53,686 bases of DNA from positions 675,597 to 729,282 of the forward strand of contig MU057984.1 of the NCBI GenBank assembly GCA_013265495.1, given 5' to 3'. The position numbers and the translations under genes were made by a program. The notes below the pieces were generated by a model. The model was not told the origin of the DNA, ran no database searches, and saw only the letters and a program-made list of their open reading frames with translations. Of the stretch, positions 32,122 through 39,995 are shown one piece after another (within the stretch, counting starts at the first letter, position 1; every line of letters starts with the position of its first letter). The DNA comes from Vicugna vicugna (Eukaryota).

Positions 32122-33041
32122 AAAAAATTTTAGTAACACACTTTTTTTGGTAGTTGCCATAGTTCCTGTGAAACTGTAAGTAGTTAATTTCCTTTTTCTA
32201 CACATGCTGGCTACATTGTCTATGTTTCACTCTTAGGATATATTCAGTTAATGTTTGCTGAATGAATCAACCAATTAATCGAAGTACTAGGTCACATTCC
32301 CTGATTCAAAATGTAGAGCCCTACCTCTGCCTCCATTGAAGAAACTGAAAGTGCTATAGCTGCTCATCTAACTTGAAGAGTTCCCACGTGAAACTTTCAC
32401 TCTGAATGTCATAATGGACATCTCACCTCCAAGCCCTAAACCCTTCGTCTTAGAGGTGGAAGTGTGCACAAAAGGATGATAAATTATGCTTTCAGCATTG
32501 CACTACATACACCCCTGTTACCCTGCTCAGTTGAAGAACATAGGCCATCTTAAAGGGTTCTGCATTCAACCTGCAAATGGCTGTATCTTGAGCCAACTTT
32601 CTACTCCAGGCAGTAACTGGTGTCAGTGTAGGCCAGCAATCAGAGCCACACAATACCTGTTCTCTAGTGTGCCACATGCTCAGAAACCATGGAAAGAGGT
32701 CTGAGCTAAAGACAACATCTAGACTGACTCAGAACACATGTCATCCACACCCAGTCTTTTATCTGTTGAGTTACTGTGGTAATTAGCACTCATATATTCC
32801 CTCCTCTTATTTCCAAGTAGAAAAACAAGACATATCTGAAGCCACAACTGACTTACACTACTCGTGGGACTCCTGGCCTGTCTTATCTGTCATCACTCAC
32901 CAGTATAAACTATTATATAGCTCAACCCCAGGGGAGGAGTACCACTGTCCACAAGGGAAGAAATACTCATCTCTAGGAGGCAAAAAAACCTCCCAACAAC
33001 AGCTGAAACATCCATGGGCAGATAAATGGATACAGAATGTG

Positions 33042-33471
33042 TGTCACCAGCAAAGCCCACTGGGGTCCCTGAGAAAAGTAAGATGAAATCTAGGTTAAGG
33101 TCTAACCTCTTCTTCCATGCTTAGTCTAGTTTTCCTTGCCTATATAGGGCTATGTGCAGAGGTCTTGCTTCTAATGTCAGATTAGAGTTCTCAGTGCAGA
33201 ACTTTGTACCCAATACACCAACTGGCATGCCATGTACGGAAGTACTGTACACAACACCTCAATTCAAGATGGCAATAGATACGATGTGTAGAGATACTGC
33301 ACCCAGCATTTCAATCTGAAGCGCATCTAAACTTGAAGGAGTCTGCCCTTCCTTCTGTAGAGGAGAACCCTATACAGCAGCCCTGCCGATGGCCTTTTGG
33401 GTCATCCTATTGGCATGAGTGACACTGGGCACAAGGATCCTTATTGGGGCCGACTCAAAGGGTCGGTAACA
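33042..33471 (+). repeat. 5' LTR of the ERV (decayed, R region deleted)
   Basis: TGTCACC...GGTAACA. Shares blocks GCAAAGCCCA, GTCTAACC, GTCTAGTTT, CAAGATGGC, CCCTATA.AGCAGCCC and GACAC...AAGGA.CC with 36560-37071. Confidence 0.88.
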
Positions 33472-33476
33472 AATTT

Positions 33477-33494
33477 TGGCAACCAACATGGGAT
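33477..33494 (+). other. Degenerate primer-binding site (tRNA-Arg or tRNA-Lys type)
   Basis: TGGCAACCAACATGGGAT 5 nt after the LTR end. By eye 14/18 to an Arg-type PBS (TGGCGACCCAGATGGGAC) and 13/18 to Lys-CUU (TGGCGCCCAACGTGGGGC), both recalled from memory. Confidence 0.7.
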
Positions 33495-34867
33495 ATACTG
33501 AGGCCTTTCACCGATAGCTATCCACAAGGCTCTAGGTGTGCTTTCGTTTGAGCAGGAGGAAGGCCGAGGCTTTGGGAGGTTTGCTTGAGGATGACTGACT
33601 TTGATCTTGAGTACACTCTGACCAGGTAAAGCAGCAGCAATCTTTGGCTGAATTCAGAGCAACTCTGTCCAACAACCCAATATCCAGTTGTGGTGTGCAC
33701 ACAGTGTAGCCCCAGATTAATCTGGACTATGCCTCTTTGAAGGGATCATACTGTGGCATTTGGGGGATCGGAGAATGAAACTCACATGTGTCTGCCCACT
33801 GCCTCTGACTGGCCTTCCTGGGGTACCAGATACCTGGGGACAATGAGGCACTAAGGACTTAAAGACCTGTTAATGAGAGGGAGCCACAGCAATCTTGCTT
33901 GCTGACTCTCCAGTAGTGTTGTCCTCCTGACTCCTGTACAAGGCTACAGCAGCCACACAAGGGCTTTTTGCCCTCTTCACTGACCTCTAGGCATCAACAG
34001 TAGGATTCCCCATAGTCACTATCAGTTTGGTAGAGGAAAGTGGCCAGCCTTGTGAGCCAAGAGGTGAGCCCAGGGAAAGCCCCAGGTAATAAGGACCACC
34101 TGACAAAATAGGATGACGATGCTTGATCTGTTAAGGAGGCACTGAGGATGCCTGAATCTGAAAGGGTCCCAAGGTAGGTACACGACTGGTGACCTGTTCT
34201 CTTCCATTCAGGACTAGTTTCTCTGAAGTGGAATTGGCAGATGTGAGACCCACTGGAAAGACCAGGAACCCCATTATCAGGAAGCCTTGTGAACTGCTGG
34301 CAAGAACAGGAAACACACTGCTTGACCTCTCCTCTCCCCCTGCTTGTGAGGTGAAACTTGGGTGATTCTTCATTGACTGAGGTTCCATGGGTGCTCCTCC
34401 TAGTATCAGCACAGAATGCCAGCTGCCACAGTGATCTGGTGAGTACCTCGTGCTTTTAGAGCTCACCCAGCGGGAAGTTCAAAAACTCCTCCTTTTGGCC
34501 AAAAGGGGGAAAAAGGAGACCCCTGTCTCAGACAGCTGTGCCACTCCCTAATGGACCAAATTGGTCAGAAACTAACATGGCTAAGCTACTCTGGCTTAGA
34601 GGCAGTTCTGTTCAACCTCTTGTGGGATATTCTGACTGAGGAAGGACTAGTTCAAGCACAGGCCTTTATGAATTCAAAGAAAACCCCCAACTGTATCAGA
34701 GCCAACATCTCTTTTGCTCTCTTGAGAAATTCATTAACAATTTGGTGCTGGTTCTAAACTTCCCGAACCAGAAATCCTTTTTGGATCAAATCTTGAGGCA
34801 TACCAACAAATCACTCCAACTGCACCCTTGGTATTTGGAAACAACTCCAAAACAGAATATCTAAACT

Positions 34868-35822
34868 ATGGAAAACGAAACATCCAACATAACGGTAGCC
34901 TATTAGGGTGCATCCTGCAGAACTGGAAGTTTTTCGGGTATCACACTTAACCCAGAAACTTTAATTTCCCGATGTAATATGGCCTGGCTCCAATACTGGC
35001 TGAGAGATTGGGCAAGTTGACCTGTCAATGGGTCTATGAATTATCTGCCAAGGTCCAATAACCGGACAGGAAGAGTACTCCTTTTGACGCAGGTCCTCAA
35101 TGGAGGAGGAGGACCTATCCAGGTATACACCACATTTACCACCTCTGATATGTGTAACTGGAAAAGTCACAGTAAGGGGTTGAAGATTCAGAGGGGTTCC
35201 TGAATCTGATGAGAGGAATCTTTCAGACCCGTGACCCCACCTGGCTGACATCCAGAGCCTCCTCAATCTGCTCCTGACAGAGGAAGAAAGGCCACAATCT
35301 TTTCAAAAGTTCTAGAGGAAGCAAAGAGAACAGAAACAATGCAGGTCATGCTATTTTCAGAACGGGGAGCCAAATGGTCACAGATAACAAATCCAACCAA
35401 AAACACTGAGACCGTGGAGAAGAGGGTGGAAGACAGAGGCTGATCCATTACAAAAATATGATCCTCGACGAAATCCACACTGCAGGACAGAAATCCGGGA
35501 ATTGGAACATGGTAAAGGAAATCAATCAGGAGCCAACAGAAAACACGTCAGCATCCCTAAAGCCTCAGGGAATGCCCCTGAATGTATACTACCACTATCC
35601 CTGAGTCATTGGAAGGGGATGCAATCCTGAGGCTGTATTTCATTTCCCAAAGTGCCCCCGACATTAGGCGTAAACTTCAGAAACTGGAAATAGACTCAGA
35701 CACCCCCACCTCTAGCCTGGTTGAGGTTGCCTACCAGGTATTCAGTAACTTAGATATAGAGGAAGAAAAGTCAGAGGATAAAAAGGCCTGGAGGCAAGCC
35801 CACCTACTGGCTCTTGCCGTCC
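34868..35822 (+). pseudogene. gag: ERV gag remnant (matrix + capsid), frameshifted, nucleocapsid missing
   Basis: MA-like LLGCILQNWK...CNMAWLQY...PVNGSMNY; CA-like DPTW/DIQSLLNLLLTEEE; MHR-like VKEINQEPTEN; ORF 35582-35875 YFISQSAPDIRRKLQKLE, the class I gag QSAPDI motif. Confidence 0.9.
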
Positions 35823-36416
35823 AATGTCAACTGGTCGGCACGAGAATCTGGACTCACCGCCCACGGAGACTCTAGATTCCGCTGCAGGGGATTACCCAGG
35901 GGTACACCACAAGTGAGTAACAACCCAAGACAATGCGCCGCCTCTGACTACTCTTGGGAGCCTCTCTCCAACCTAAACTCCTTTTCCGAAAAATGGTAAA
36001 AGATAAGTAACCCGATATGCTTTGCCAGTAGAGACTCTAGGATCTTTGAGCTGACCGGGGAGGGGGTCGGCGCGCTGGCCCATATATCCTGTTGCTTCCA
36101 CGTCAGTGCAAGTGGCCTGACTGGAGAAAGTGCAGGCAGGCTACCAGAAAAAGCCACTTGGCAAACAGAAGGCAGCCAGCCTAATCTGGCCGAACAAACG
36201 TGGAGGCGGGTAACACAAGCCCTTCGCAGCGTCACTTGGTTTCTGCCTTTCCTGTGCCCCTTAATAGCTGTTGTTCTCTTGCTGATATTTCCACCGTGTA
36301 TCTTAAACTGTCTGGTGTCCTTTGTCTCTAAAGCGTTAGAACCCATAAAACTTCAAATGGGGATCGTTCCGCGACACGAACAGTCAGGGCCAAGGCCTAG
36401 CGACAATCAAACATAA
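35814..36416 (+). pseudogene. env: ERV env remnant (SU C-terminus + TM subunit)
   Basis: LPSNVNWS (SU-end-like); GALAHISCCF, a CX6CC motif with the first Cys changed to Gly; membrane anchor WFLPFLCPLIAVVLLLIFPPCILNCLVSFVS followed by IKLQM; stop at 36414-36416. Confidence 0.9.
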
Positions 36417-36542
36417 GTAAAGGCAGCTGGGAGAAGTTCGGCTCCTCTACACGGGGTTATGTCGACGCCCAATCTCGGCAGGAAATGGTTAAAGAAGACG
36501 GACCTTCACCGCTCAGCGCCCCTCAAGAATCAGGAGCAGGAC

Positions 36543-36558
36543 AAAAGCAGAGGAGGGG
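36543..36558 (+). other. Polypurine tract
   Basis: AAAAGCAGAGGAGGGG immediately before the 3' LTR. Confidence 0.8.
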
Positions 36559-36559
36559 C

Positions 36560-37071
36560 TCTTCGCAGGCAAAGCCCATTAACGATTCCCAGGAAATAAG
36601 AGAACCTGAGTAAGAGAATAAAGTCTAACCTTTTTTCCCTTTGTACTTCGTCTAGTTTCACTTGCTCAGAGGGTGCCACGGGCACATGACTTGCTCCTGA
36701 CATTGCAGCCCGGTGACCGTGTGGAGAAACTGCAAATGACACCACCAATCAAGATGGCGGCGGTGAGGCGGCGGCGGCTGCAGCGGGCCCCGTGCAGAGG
36801 CACCGCGAGATCTGCAGCGTGAGCAGCACAGCTGTGCCTGTGGACGAGAACCCTGCCCCCTCCCCCGCTGATGAGATCCCTATAAAGCAGCCCCGCCCAC
36901 GGCCTGGCCTGTCTGGAGAGCACGGACTCTAGATCACAGCTCCGAGCTCTCCACCCTTTGATCGAAGAATAAAGCTGTCTTTTGTTTCTGAACTGAAGTC
37001 GGTCTCCTTCTCTTGGCACAAGCGACACCGAGCAGAAGGACCCTGGTTGGCGCCCAAAAGGTCTGTAACCT
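36560..37071 (+). promoter_or_regulatory. 3' LTR, CpG-rich, with intact promoter and poly(A) elements
   Basis: CCAAT at 36745, YY1 CAAGATGGCGGC at 36750-36761, TATAAA at 36881, CCCCGCCC at 36891, AATAAA at 36968. About 27 CpG in about 510 bp (hand count). Promoter activity itself is inferred. Confidence 0.8.
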
Positions 37072-39995
37072 ATGTGGTATTTACACACAATAGAATACTG
37101 TTGAACTTTAAAAAAAAAAAAATTCTGCCCTGTGCCACAACATGGATGAGCATCATGGACATTACGGTAAGTGAAATAAGACAGTTACAGAAGGACAAAT
37201 ATTGCATGATTCCACTTGTATGAAGTATTTAAAAGTCAAATTCACAGAATTAAAGAGGGAAATGGTGGCTGCCAGGATCTGAGGGGAAGAGGAAATGAGG
37301 AGTTCCTAATCAACGGACATAAAAGTTTCAGTTAAACAAGATGATAAGATCTAGAGATCTGCTGTACAACACTGTACTTGTAGTAAAAAATAATGTACAC
37401 TTTAAAATGTTTTCAGTGGTTAGATCTCATACAAGTGCTATTGCTACACACACACACACAACCAGTTTCTTATGTTATACACATTAGGGATATACAGGTA
37501 TAGATATAGATGCCTGATTAATTACAAATACAAAATCATGTTCATTCATTAACAGAATCAATTTTAAGGATATCAATTTGGGAGAGATTATATTGACCAA
37601 GAGTTTAGTTGTTAGTACAGTACTGTGTATCAGTGATAAGATAAAGTATGTTTTTATCCTTCCCACCTAGACTTTTGCAGTACACTATCTGTGGGGAAAT
37701 GGGAATTATATAAATTAAAATCAGTGTAATATTTACAATGAAAAGCTCTGCATATATTTTAAGTTTATACTTTCTAATTTAACACACTCCTTTTTGTGTT
37801 TATCAGATATTTTGATTTATGTTTGTTATTTGGGAAGTTATAAAATGCAAAACCCCACAATGGAAAGAAATCACTGTGAGTGTCAAAACCCCTTCCAAAC
37901 TGCTGAGGATTTAAGTAAGTTGTCTCGGTATAAATTCACTGCAATTAGCATTCTTCAATCTTAAGAGGAAAATGTAATTTTCTTCATGTCTTGAACATGA
38001 ACCATTTTGAAAAAAATTTATATATATTTACAGCTCTGTAAACTTAAAAGTATCATCAGATAAAACGAATAAATAATCATGGTAAATCAATTTTCTTTGA
38101 AATGTTTGATCTTTAAAATCTAAGACTTCCAAATTTCTAAATCTTGTCTTTCTGTGTATTGAGATTCTGTGTTCTTTCAATATTTAAAATTTTATAGTTA
38201 ATAGCCTTTTTCCTTCTAATTTTATTTCGTCTGCTAAATATCAAAACTGAAATATTGATTTAAACAGAAAATGAACTTTTATTTTGGGTATCATGATTAA
38301 TTAGTACTGCACATTCAATGTACGTATGTCTGTCTTGAGACTAACAACAAAATAGACTTGAGATGAAAAACAATAAAAATGCTTGACTATTATTTATGGA
38401 TACAATGTAAAAAATAACTTCTCTATTCTTAATTAATTTGTTAAATTTCTTACAATTTTACATGTTGAGAGAGAAGATGGATTATAAGTTAAAATATCAA
38501 ATGATATCTGAAGTAATATTAGTACTATGAACTCTTTCCCTCATCTTCAGAAAGCAGGTCCTCAAATCTATGCTTGGGACCTGGAAGTTATACATACACA
38601 CAGACACATGTATATAATATTTAGTATTTGATATTTTCCAGTTCTTTAAATCACTGTTACCAAAATCAATCATTGTTCACAAAGCAAAAACTCTTTTGTT
38701 GAAATGGGTCTTGGTGAATTTATGGTTCCTCATTTGAGGGAGACCTGTAATTTTATTAAAAGTTTATATTGGAGTGAAAAGGCCAGGAAGATGTCAGAAT
38801 AAATGGCATTAACCCAGTATTAAAATTTGCCCTTAAATGAACCAAATGTCCGGCTACACTTTTTTCGAAAAAACAAAACAACAGACTCAAAATTCTTAGT
38901 TTTCCATTCTAGGGTTAAAACTGAAAGGCAGGCTCAAAGCTCTGGAAATTGGGAGATTGTTATAATCATATATTTCTCAAAAATAGTAATATTTTATTTT
39001 GTCTTTACAGTTTAGCTCAGACTGAATTTAAATGCTTACTTCTTGTGGTGGGTTAGTGGTTTGGCAGAGGCCAAGATTAATTAGGAGATATCAACTCTGT
39101 TCTCCCTTATATGAATATGATCCATAAACTTTGGCAATGGGAATGTAAACTAAAAACTTTATTAAAATTTGTAAAATCAGTATATTGTGATAATGTGTTA
39201 CTTTTATAATTTAAAAAGAACAAAATAGATTAAGAAACAATTTTGAATGCCAATTAGTTAATATATAGATTATCCTTAATCTGTAACCAATATCACAATA
39301 AATAACCTACTTTTTAACATTGCATTCAAAAATGATAGGAATTTGTTTATCATTAATAATCTCATATTGAAAATATATGAAAGTAAGATTAAAAATGTCC
39401 ATATATCATCCCTATAATCGTATGCAGCAGATGATCAGATTAGATCACTTGATTAATTTCAAACATTACTATAATAAATAAGGGAATCTAGGCCAGACTT
39501 AGCAGAGCCAGAATTAGCTGGCCAGTTTGCTGATTCCCAAGGCTCTCTGTCTAGAGGTGTCCAGATCTGTGGTCCTCATATTCTTCTTTTCTAGGAAGTC
39601 AATGTTACCAGAATTGTTGGATGCTCTCTTGCTAATCAAAGCCAGCAGCTGTCTTCCATGGTTTAGGAGAGAAAGTCTTAATGTTTGGAATTTTTTCTTA
39701 TTTTATCTTTTTCTGTAATATATATATATATTTCTAAAAGTGTGACTTGTTCTGGAAATTGTATGGTTACGAGATCAGCATTTTCCTTCCACCTCCCACA
39801 TGTTGTGGTATTCTTTCACATTTTCTCTCTCTTCTTCCTTGCCTGTTGCTTTTTGGGAGCGTTCCTTCATGTGGTTGTACCTCTCGGGTTCCTAGTTATT
39901 TTGTCCTGTGAACTCATGTGAAGATAGGTAAGGGTGATTAGCCATCTTGTCTGATCTGTTGTACTGGAGAAGGGCCTAAGGCCCAGCCTGGTCTG

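Follow-up and report, generated by a model that had tools for sequence, protein, structure and literature searches.

The DNA analysed here, referred to throughout as the window, is a stretch of 53,686 nucleotides of the Vicugna vicugna scaffold MU057984.1. It represents the terminal 53.7 kb of a 729-kb scaffold in a 2.03-Gb mammalian assembly, contains no N, and consists of AT-rich DNA that is rich in L1 elements. Within it lies a deleted gammaretrovirus-like provirus of an old, star-like endogenous retrovirus (ERV) family, whose 5' long terminal repeat (LTR) is poor in CpG and whose 3' end has the composition of a CpG island. We found that such a CpG-rich 3' end is normal for the family: it is shared by the 3' LTRs, by the last 0.4-1.7 kb of internal sequence and by most putative solo LTRs. 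The locus is ordinary for its family except in two respects, its mosaic LTRs and a perfect twin of its 3' part. The features of the locus are given below in window positions, with o/e standing for the observed-to-expected CpG ratio and A and B for the two LTR clades of the family.

33037-33041, plus strand: ATGTG, the left target-site duplicate, where the left L1 flank ends; read directly
33042-33471, plus strand: 5' LTR, clade B, CpG-poor (6 CpG); shares clade-B characters with L052-L067
33472-34700, plus strand: primer-binding region and leader, CpG o/e 0.07-0.28
34700-35875, plus strand: gag remnant, broken over several frames, with a Gag_p30 C-terminal match at 35582-35743
35083-37436, plus strand: tract with a 100% identical twin at C1182:627663-630016, which lies 83,016 bp upstream in this scaffold
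35751-37100, no strand: CpG-island-like domain, o/e 0.57-0.72 in 500-bp windows
36000-36416, plus strand: remnant of the C-terminal part of the env transmembrane subunit, open for 138 codons; TLV_coat
36543-36559, plus strand: purine-rich tract abutting the 3' LTR, at the position of the polypurine tract; read directly
36560-37070, plus strand: 3' LTR, clade A, CpG-rich (27 CpG, o/e 0.67), with CCAAT, YY1-like site, TATA, GC box and AATAAA
37072-37076, plus strand: right copy of the target-site duplication (ATGTG); read directly
37077-37445, plus strand: 3' end of the host L1 split by the provirus, terminating in a (CA)n run

A first-pass annotation of this DNA had proposed a single insertion with a target-site duplication into a continuous L1, and we came to the same view. 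ATGTG is present on both sides, and the left and right flanks match adjacent positions in other copies of L1. When four such copies were tried as references, the two flank alignments overlapped by 4 and 5 bp in two of them and by 9 bp in a third, and lay 27 bp apart in the fourth. One integration into an L1 is thus a sound reading of the sequence, and the element, with two direct LTRs (62-70% identical) inside a short target-site duplication, looks like a class I provirus. About 90 bp of R, with the poly(A) signal, are missing from the 5' LTR, which is followed by a TGG-led stretch, a candidate primer-binding site. The leader (33472-34700) is 70-75% identical to the leaders of other copies, and the gag remnant 72-81% identical to their gag. 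The Pfam match to Gag_p30 at 35582-35743 (26.4 bits, E 6e-6) falls 1 bit below the cut-off of 27.4, and the match to TLV_coat at 36087-36326 (34.5 bits, cut-off 22.5) is well above it. Pol and most of env were deleted between 35875 and 36000. Consequently, the earlier description of the 750 bp preceding the 3' LTR as env/3'UTR is appropriate for the part that carries the TLV_coat match, but not for 35810-36000, where gag ends. An Rfam search of 32500-38000 returned no family at gathering score.

The region 35810-37071 contains 62 CpG in 1262 bp (o/e 0.67, G+C 0.54), far more than any other part of the window. Windows of the same 1262 bp, taken across the 53.7 kb in steps of 50, have a median of 5 CpG and a maximum of 17 among starts outside 34500-37200, and no 500-bp window elsewhere exceeds an o/e of 0.44. 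By these values the region passes the Gardiner-Garden and Frommer criteria for a CpG island (at least 200 bp, G+C above 0.5, o/e at least 0.6), as quoted in the excerpted part of PMC12582260. According to the same excerpt, LTRs are depleted from CpG islands, making up 1.3% of island DNA in human, and young LTRs satisfy the island criteria trivially; the ERV family considered here is old, yet its 3' end still passes them. The hand counts of the first-pass annotation proved exact in every case: 6 CpG in the 427 bp of the 5' LTR counted as 33046-33472 (o/e 0.26), 9 in the 1400 bp of the leader counted as 33473-34872 (0.11), 35 in the 750 bp of 35810-36559 (0.67) and 27 in the 512 bp of the 3' LTR counted as 36560-37071 (0.67). 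Its statement that only the 3' LTR keeps a TATA box, GC box, YY1 site, CCAAT and AATAAA holds for four of the five motifs. In the 3' LTR we located CCAAT at 36745, the YY1-like AAGATGGCGGC at 36751, TATAAA at 36881, a GC box at 36891 and AATAAA at 36968; of this set the 5' LTR has CCAAT alone, at 33210. A GGC-rich run at 36750-36795, after the YY1-like site, supplies several CpGs of the 3' LTR that are not ancestral. It is absent or shorter in most copies and has a similar counterpart in L004.

To place these values in context, LTRs of the family were classified by their flanks: a 5' LTR is followed by the leader, a 3' LTR is preceded by the end of env, and a putative solo LTR has neither within 1.5 kb. 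The sample comprises a few dozen copies rather than the whole genome complement; genome searches gave coordinates for at least 40 matches to the env end and 38 to the leader. The counts leave out a partial LTR (L027), the 3' LTR of C3378, which carries a 330-bp insertion, and duplicates that had been fetched twice. With the window itself excluded from the first two classes, the counts were:

other 5' LTRs: n = 10, 2-17 CpG, o/e 0.07-0.51 (median 0.22)
other 3' LTRs: n = 18, 10-37 CpG, o/e 0.35-0.96 (median 0.71)
putative solo LTRs: n = 16, 5-34 CpG, median o/e 0.60, mostly CpG-rich

The difference between 5' and 3' LTRs is pronounced (Mann-Whitney p 3.4e-5): all ten other 5' LTRs are CpG-poor, and 16 of the 18 other 3' LTRs have at least 20 CpG. 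It also holds within proviruses, the 5' LTR having fewer CpG than the 3' LTR in seven of seven other pairs (2-14 versus 25-37). The first five control proviruses have 5, 2, 4, 4 and 14 CpG in their 5' LTRs, and 25, 25, 25, 27 and 37 in their 3' LTRs. Two of the seven pairs served as a prospective test: starting from two CpG-rich 3' LTRs, we later retrieved their 5' partners, which turned out to have 7 and 3 CpG. Loci chosen by gag gave two 5' LTRs with 8 and 11 CpG and three partial ones with an o/e of 0.16-0.28. The transition is not confined to the LTR. In three other proviruses the o/e is 0.05-0.3 in the body, reaches 0.57-0.87 across the final 0.4-1.7 kb and the 3' LTR and falls again in the flank, and the profile of the window has the same shape.

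Might the asymmetry simply reflect the way in which copies were picked? Our searches score the best 40 candidates and therefore prefer copies that resemble the query. Even so, five 5' LTRs retrieved with the CpG-rich 3' LTR as the query are poor (4, 8, 7, 5 and 14 CpG). Likewise, the three 3' LTRs that were reached by walking along the provirus are rich (27, 37 and 21 CpG). We therefore consider it very unlikely that the pattern is an artefact of this kind, coupled with a collapsed or misplaced repeat as the source of the twin tract, which is taken up below.

The loss of CpG was followed at 30 sites that resemble ancestral CpGs, defined by CG in at least 4 copies and by CG, TG and CA together in at least 75% of copies. 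At these sites, 5' LTRs retain a median of 0.04, 3' LTRs 0.39 and putative solo LTRs 0.32; in the window, 1 of 24 sites is retained in the 5' LTR and 10 of 25 in the 3' LTR. Outside CpG, the classes are far more alike: divergence from the column majority (423 columns) is 0.18, 0.16 and 0.14, respectively, and the figure of 0.18 for 5' LTRs is inflated by clade-B sequences. The contrast between 5' and 3' LTRs is thus CpG-specific, that is, mainly a contrast in CpG decay. Strong-to-weak changes also exceed weak-to-strong ones in 5' LTRs, and this excess probably represents in part CpG decay that was not flagged as such. APOBEC-type editing was considered and rejected: TG and CA products are balanced in both classes (127:99, p 0.07, in 5' LTRs; 112:119 in 3' LTRs), and both LTRs are made from a single cDNA template. 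Strand bias of CpG decay, a possible clue to the direction of transcription, was not significant. The family has had ample time for such decay. LTR end branches are long throughout, with a median of 0.23 changes per column, and the LTRs of concordant pairs are 72-76% identical; at a mammalian rate near 2e-9 changes per site and year, this corresponds to tens of millions of years.

These results bear directly on the interpretation offered by the first-pass annotation, namely that exaptation of the 3' LTR as a host promoter has kept it unmethylated at this locus. The promoter motifs retained by the 3' LTR speak for exaptation. So do two RNA-seq runs of one study, carrying reproductive-system labels, whose contigs contain 0.41-0.42 of the sampled 31-letter words of 34500-37600, words that are not assignable to a part, strand or copy. 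They hint that part of the tract, in the window or in its twin, is transcribed in a reproductive-tissue sample. However, the locus is not special. Neither the o/e of its 3' LTR (0.67 versus a median of 0.71 in the 18 other 3' LTRs) nor its CpG retention (0.40 versus 0.39) goes beyond that of sister copies, and the shape of its CpG domain recurs in the three other proviruses. The end of its env is among the better preserved, with an o/e of 0.67-0.77 compared to 0.05-0.68 for the matching parts of ten other copies; for its LTR the window stands at the median. In addition, the 16 long open reading frames found in the window outside the known domains match no Pfam family, and the surroundings are AT-rich, L1-rich and at a scaffold end. 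The related claim that this end has been less methylated in the germline fares better: the relative footprint (1/24 versus 10/25) fits it, but as a property of the family and not of the locus. Since a lower methylation footprint of the 3' end is family-wide, the inference of exaptation loses its basis, and we give it very little credence.

The first-pass annotation further assumed that the two LTRs of the window had diverged from an identical pair. Our analysis led to a different conclusion. BLAST aligns the two over a stretch of only 36 bp, and genome searches with each of them retrieve two sets of copies, A and B. In the LTR alignment, the 5' LTR shares long blocks of non-CpG characters with set B, and the 3' LTR with set A. 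Maximum-likelihood trees of 28 and 35 LTRs recover the A/B split with support of 100 and 99 and place the window LTRs on opposite sides of it. Because each clade includes both CpG-rich and CpG-poor members, and both 5' and 3' LTRs, the split does not stem from decay. Sisterhood of the window LTRs is rejected decisively (dlnL 91.9; approximately unbiased (AU) test, p 6e-64), and two LTR pairs used as controls are not rejected as sisters (p 0.20 and 0.45). The window LTRs differ at 136 of 363 aligned columns. Of these differences 27 are clade-diagnostic, 33 private to the 3' LTR, 27 private to the 5' LTR and 49 assigned to none of these groups; across all 136, only 15 are of the type expected from CpG decay in the 5' LTR (CG in the 3' LTR, TG or CA in the 5' LTR) and one runs the opposite way.

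The window is not alone in combining a 5' LTR of clade B with a 3' LTR of clade A. This B-A arrangement was found in two of six typed proviruses, the second being C4104 (G000:C4104:17245750-17251900; loci L053 and L074), for which sisterhood of the LTRs is likewise rejected (AU p 8e-6). None of the six has the reverse, A-B arrangement. In retroviral replication both LTRs are copied from one template; therefore, the presence of B and A LTRs inside one duplication requires an exchange after integration. In the window the two lineages meet within a single insertion whose flanks and duplication are intact, and we infer ectopic gene conversion as the simplest mechanism. A donor of the clade-A LTR was not found in the genome search, in which the best other copy is 70% identical. 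We also observed that the homology of other copies to the env end of the window begins within a few bases of 36271 in 11 copies and extends back to 35915-36120 in six. The latter include both clade-B LTR pairs, the B-A provirus C4104 and one copy with a clade-B 3' LTR. The copies thus have in common a 290-bp module ahead of the 3' LTR, with two or more types of env upstream of it. The most CpG-rich of the copies examined, with 43 CpG in 531 bp and a G+C of 0.64, is a clade-B LTR of undeterminable position (L067, G000:C12391:1625600-1626220).

The second peculiarity of the locus is its twin. Over 2354 bp, which run from the end of gag through the env remnant and the complete 3' LTR to 360 bp into the L1 flank, the two tracts show no difference. 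On the left, 13 of 39 adjacent positions differ and identity further out drops to 73%, no closer than between unrelated family members; on the right, identity ends at a microsatellite, beyond which the sequences are unrelated. Only the left side of the tract is thus bounded by homology. At the upstream locus the 5' LTR is a truncated, CpG-poor one of its own, and the left L1 flank of the window has no counterpart there; the locus also has 312 bp of gag that the window lacks. The missing piece (window 34980-35082 versus C1182:627240-627662) includes a proline-rich PPPY-like stretch, and the edges of the deletion are short similar words. Since the LTR, the duplication and the L1 flank fit the insertion site of the window only, the window must be the native place of the tract. 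The upstream copy would then have arisen very recently, by one-sided conversion or by duplication, unless it is an artefact of the assembly. The razor-sharp ends of a tract without a single difference, and a run of 35 N at G000:C1182:621400-621434, 6 kb before the twin, are what a collapsed or misplaced repeat in a short-read scaffold might leave behind. On the other hand, the combination of LTR, duplication and L1 on both sides can be native to the window locus only, and 0.93-0.95 of the words of 34500-37600 are present in 14 DNA runs (5 studies, two organism labels), some of which may be the source sample.

Two other origins were rejected, one for the pair of loci and one for the 3' half. 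An old segmental duplication of the whole locus is incompatible with left halves that are no nearer to each other than to other family members and with a left L1 flank that has no upstream counterpart. The first-pass annotation had itself named a young, multicopy CpG-rich subfamily, recombined or converted into the 3' half, as a finding that would count against its interpretation. The 3' half is indeed a recombinant or converted piece with a perfect twin, but no young multicopy source is in evidence: apart from the twin, the best match is 70% for the LTR and 81% for the internal part. A third provirus of the family lies 3-6 kb past the twin, toward the window (C1182:632862-633208 and 635583-636285; L035 and L015). 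Its gag piece is 90% identical to window 35533-35879, compared with the family norm of 72-81%, and may reflect an older exchange within the same 100-kb neighbourhood.

Taken together, the mosaics and the fresh tract raise the question whether the 3' ends of this family are recombination-hot, so that repeated GC-biased ectopic gene conversion among 3' and solo LTRs renews their CpGs without any difference in methylation. Such a process would link the B-A mosaics with the 2.35-kb tract, which is centred on the CpG domain and, being 100% identical, resembles a fresh conversion. It would also suit the one-sided occurrence of mosaics (two of six B-A, none reversed) and the balance of strong-to-weak and weak-to-strong changes in 3' but not in 5' LTRs. 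Several observations are difficult to reconcile with it. With the exception of that one tract, 3' LTR end branches of 0.20-0.45 changes per column leave no room for recent homogenisation. Weak-to-strong changes per LTR number about 25 versus 20, yet CpG retention is tenfold apart. Moreover, copies that are 65-80% alike make a poor substrate for conversion. GC-biased conversion therefore remains live as a rival or a contributor, although as the sole explanation we regard it as unlikely.

We propose that the pattern is best explained by position-dependent germline methylation of the whole family, combined locally with a mosaic and a recent copy of a tract, and would put the probability of this explanation at about 60%. 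According to this proposal, the 5' LTR, leader and body would have been methylated in the germline, and their CpGs would have decayed by deamination over tens of millions of years. The CpG-dense region of the 3' LTR would have been protected by default, largely though not fully unmethylated, in the manner of an orphan CpG island. Two local events would come on top: ectopic gene conversion, as the simplest account of how a 5' LTR of clade B and a 3' LTR of clade A came to share one duplication, and a very recent copying of the 3' 2.35 kb with its L1 flank onto the provirus 83 kb upstream, unless the latter is an assembly error. As to the cause, silencing may be aimed at the leader and primer-binding region. 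Alternatively, the 3' LTR could be the dominant, perhaps antisense, promoter, with run-through transcription bringing methylation to the body.

Several points weigh against position-dependent methylation as the explanation. Methylation as the cause is deduced from a mutational footprint alone. The 3' LTRs have themselves lost about 60% of their ancestral CpG sites, so any protection was at most partial. The numbers of strong-to-weak and weak-to-strong changes (333:181 in 5' LTRs, 460:478 in 3' LTRs) fit GC-biased conversion as well. The sample is small and partly biased, 15 of the 18 3' LTRs having been found through CpG-rich queries; the status of the putative solo LTRs means the absence of leader and env within 1.5 kb and nothing more; and eight clade-B LTRs of undeterminable position, with 4-43 CpG, were left out of the class counts. 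The third provirus near the twin has the sole clearly CpG-poor 3' LTR among those examined (10 CpG, o/e 0.35). Finally, the groups compared in the AU tests were chosen after the tree had been seen.

LTR pairs serve as molecular clocks and natural controls, being identical at the start. If position alone decides the fate of CpGs in an LTR, divergence dating of such elements is biased, and richness in CpG does not on its own show that an LTR was exapted. It would also mean that, over evolutionary time, a provirus is handled differently at its two ends by the germline. It is this family-wide, position-dependent CpG footprint, rather than the individual locus, that seems worth following up. As the copies are more than 20% diverged and therefore map uniquely, 5', 3', solo and truncated copies can be compared against public methylomes. 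We found no description of a family-wide 5'-poor/3'-rich CpG pattern in ERVs in the open-access literature, a weak negative because the prime in 5' and 3' searched poorly.

How does this family compare with known systems? Like the LTR-initiated transcription units and LTR-derived host promoters described in the part of PMC6102241 considered here, the 3' LTR of the window is CpG-rich, has a full promoter kit and could start transcripts in germ cells; unlike them, it is known from sequence, and its CpG retention is not specific to the locus. The mosaic can be set beside non-allelic gene conversion among LTRs and mosaic human ERVs (PMC4921805, PMC4724089, both in excerpt). The resemblance lies in LTRs that do not group together between intact flanks and in a tract identical between two loci. 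The recent tract departs from a simple conversion in carrying 360 bp of non-homologous flank and in stopping at a microsatellite. For methylation, a parallel is offered by Iap5-1 in mouse, a solo LTR of an intracisternal A-particle (IAP) element that lost the DNA methylation and H3K9me3 of the full-length allele (PMC8084528, in excerpt). There, an LTR freed from the proviral interior loses methylation, and a similar release would explain why most putative solo LTRs keep their CpGs here. However, Iap5-1 is one young locus with measured methylation, and the excerpt is silent on 3' LTRs of full-length elements; in the present family, 3' LTRs attached to the interior keep their CpGs too.

The closest parallel is human T-cell leukaemia virus type 1 (HTLV-1), in which methylation affects the 5' LTR but seldom the 3' LTR (PMC4926191, in excerpt). 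In both cases LTRs that are identical at integration would acquire opposite methylation according to position, with the 3' end staying open, and the CpG retention of 0.04 in 5' versus 0.39 in 3' LTRs is a decay-based proxy that can be put beside the methylation pattern of the HTLV-1 LTRs. As far as that excerpt goes, the HTLV-1 asymmetry belongs to a deltaretrovirus, is somatic, occurs in infected T cells and is tied to antisense HBZ transcription and a CTCF site; in the present, endogenous gamma-like family the evidence is a mutational footprint of the germline. The window has no match to a CTCF-like core when at most one mismatch is allowed, and a weak or different site is possible. With odds that we would put slightly short of even, the family may carry a provirus-intrinsic, position-dependent footprint of germline methylation, in which most solo LTRs, and the 3' LTR together with the last kilobase, have behaved as autonomous CpG islands for tens of millions of years, and identical sequence in the 5' position has been methylated to extinction. 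It would then be an endogenous counterpart of the HTLV-1 asymmetry, and the question why the 5' LTR alone is methylated in HTLV-1 would become testable in ordinary genomes.

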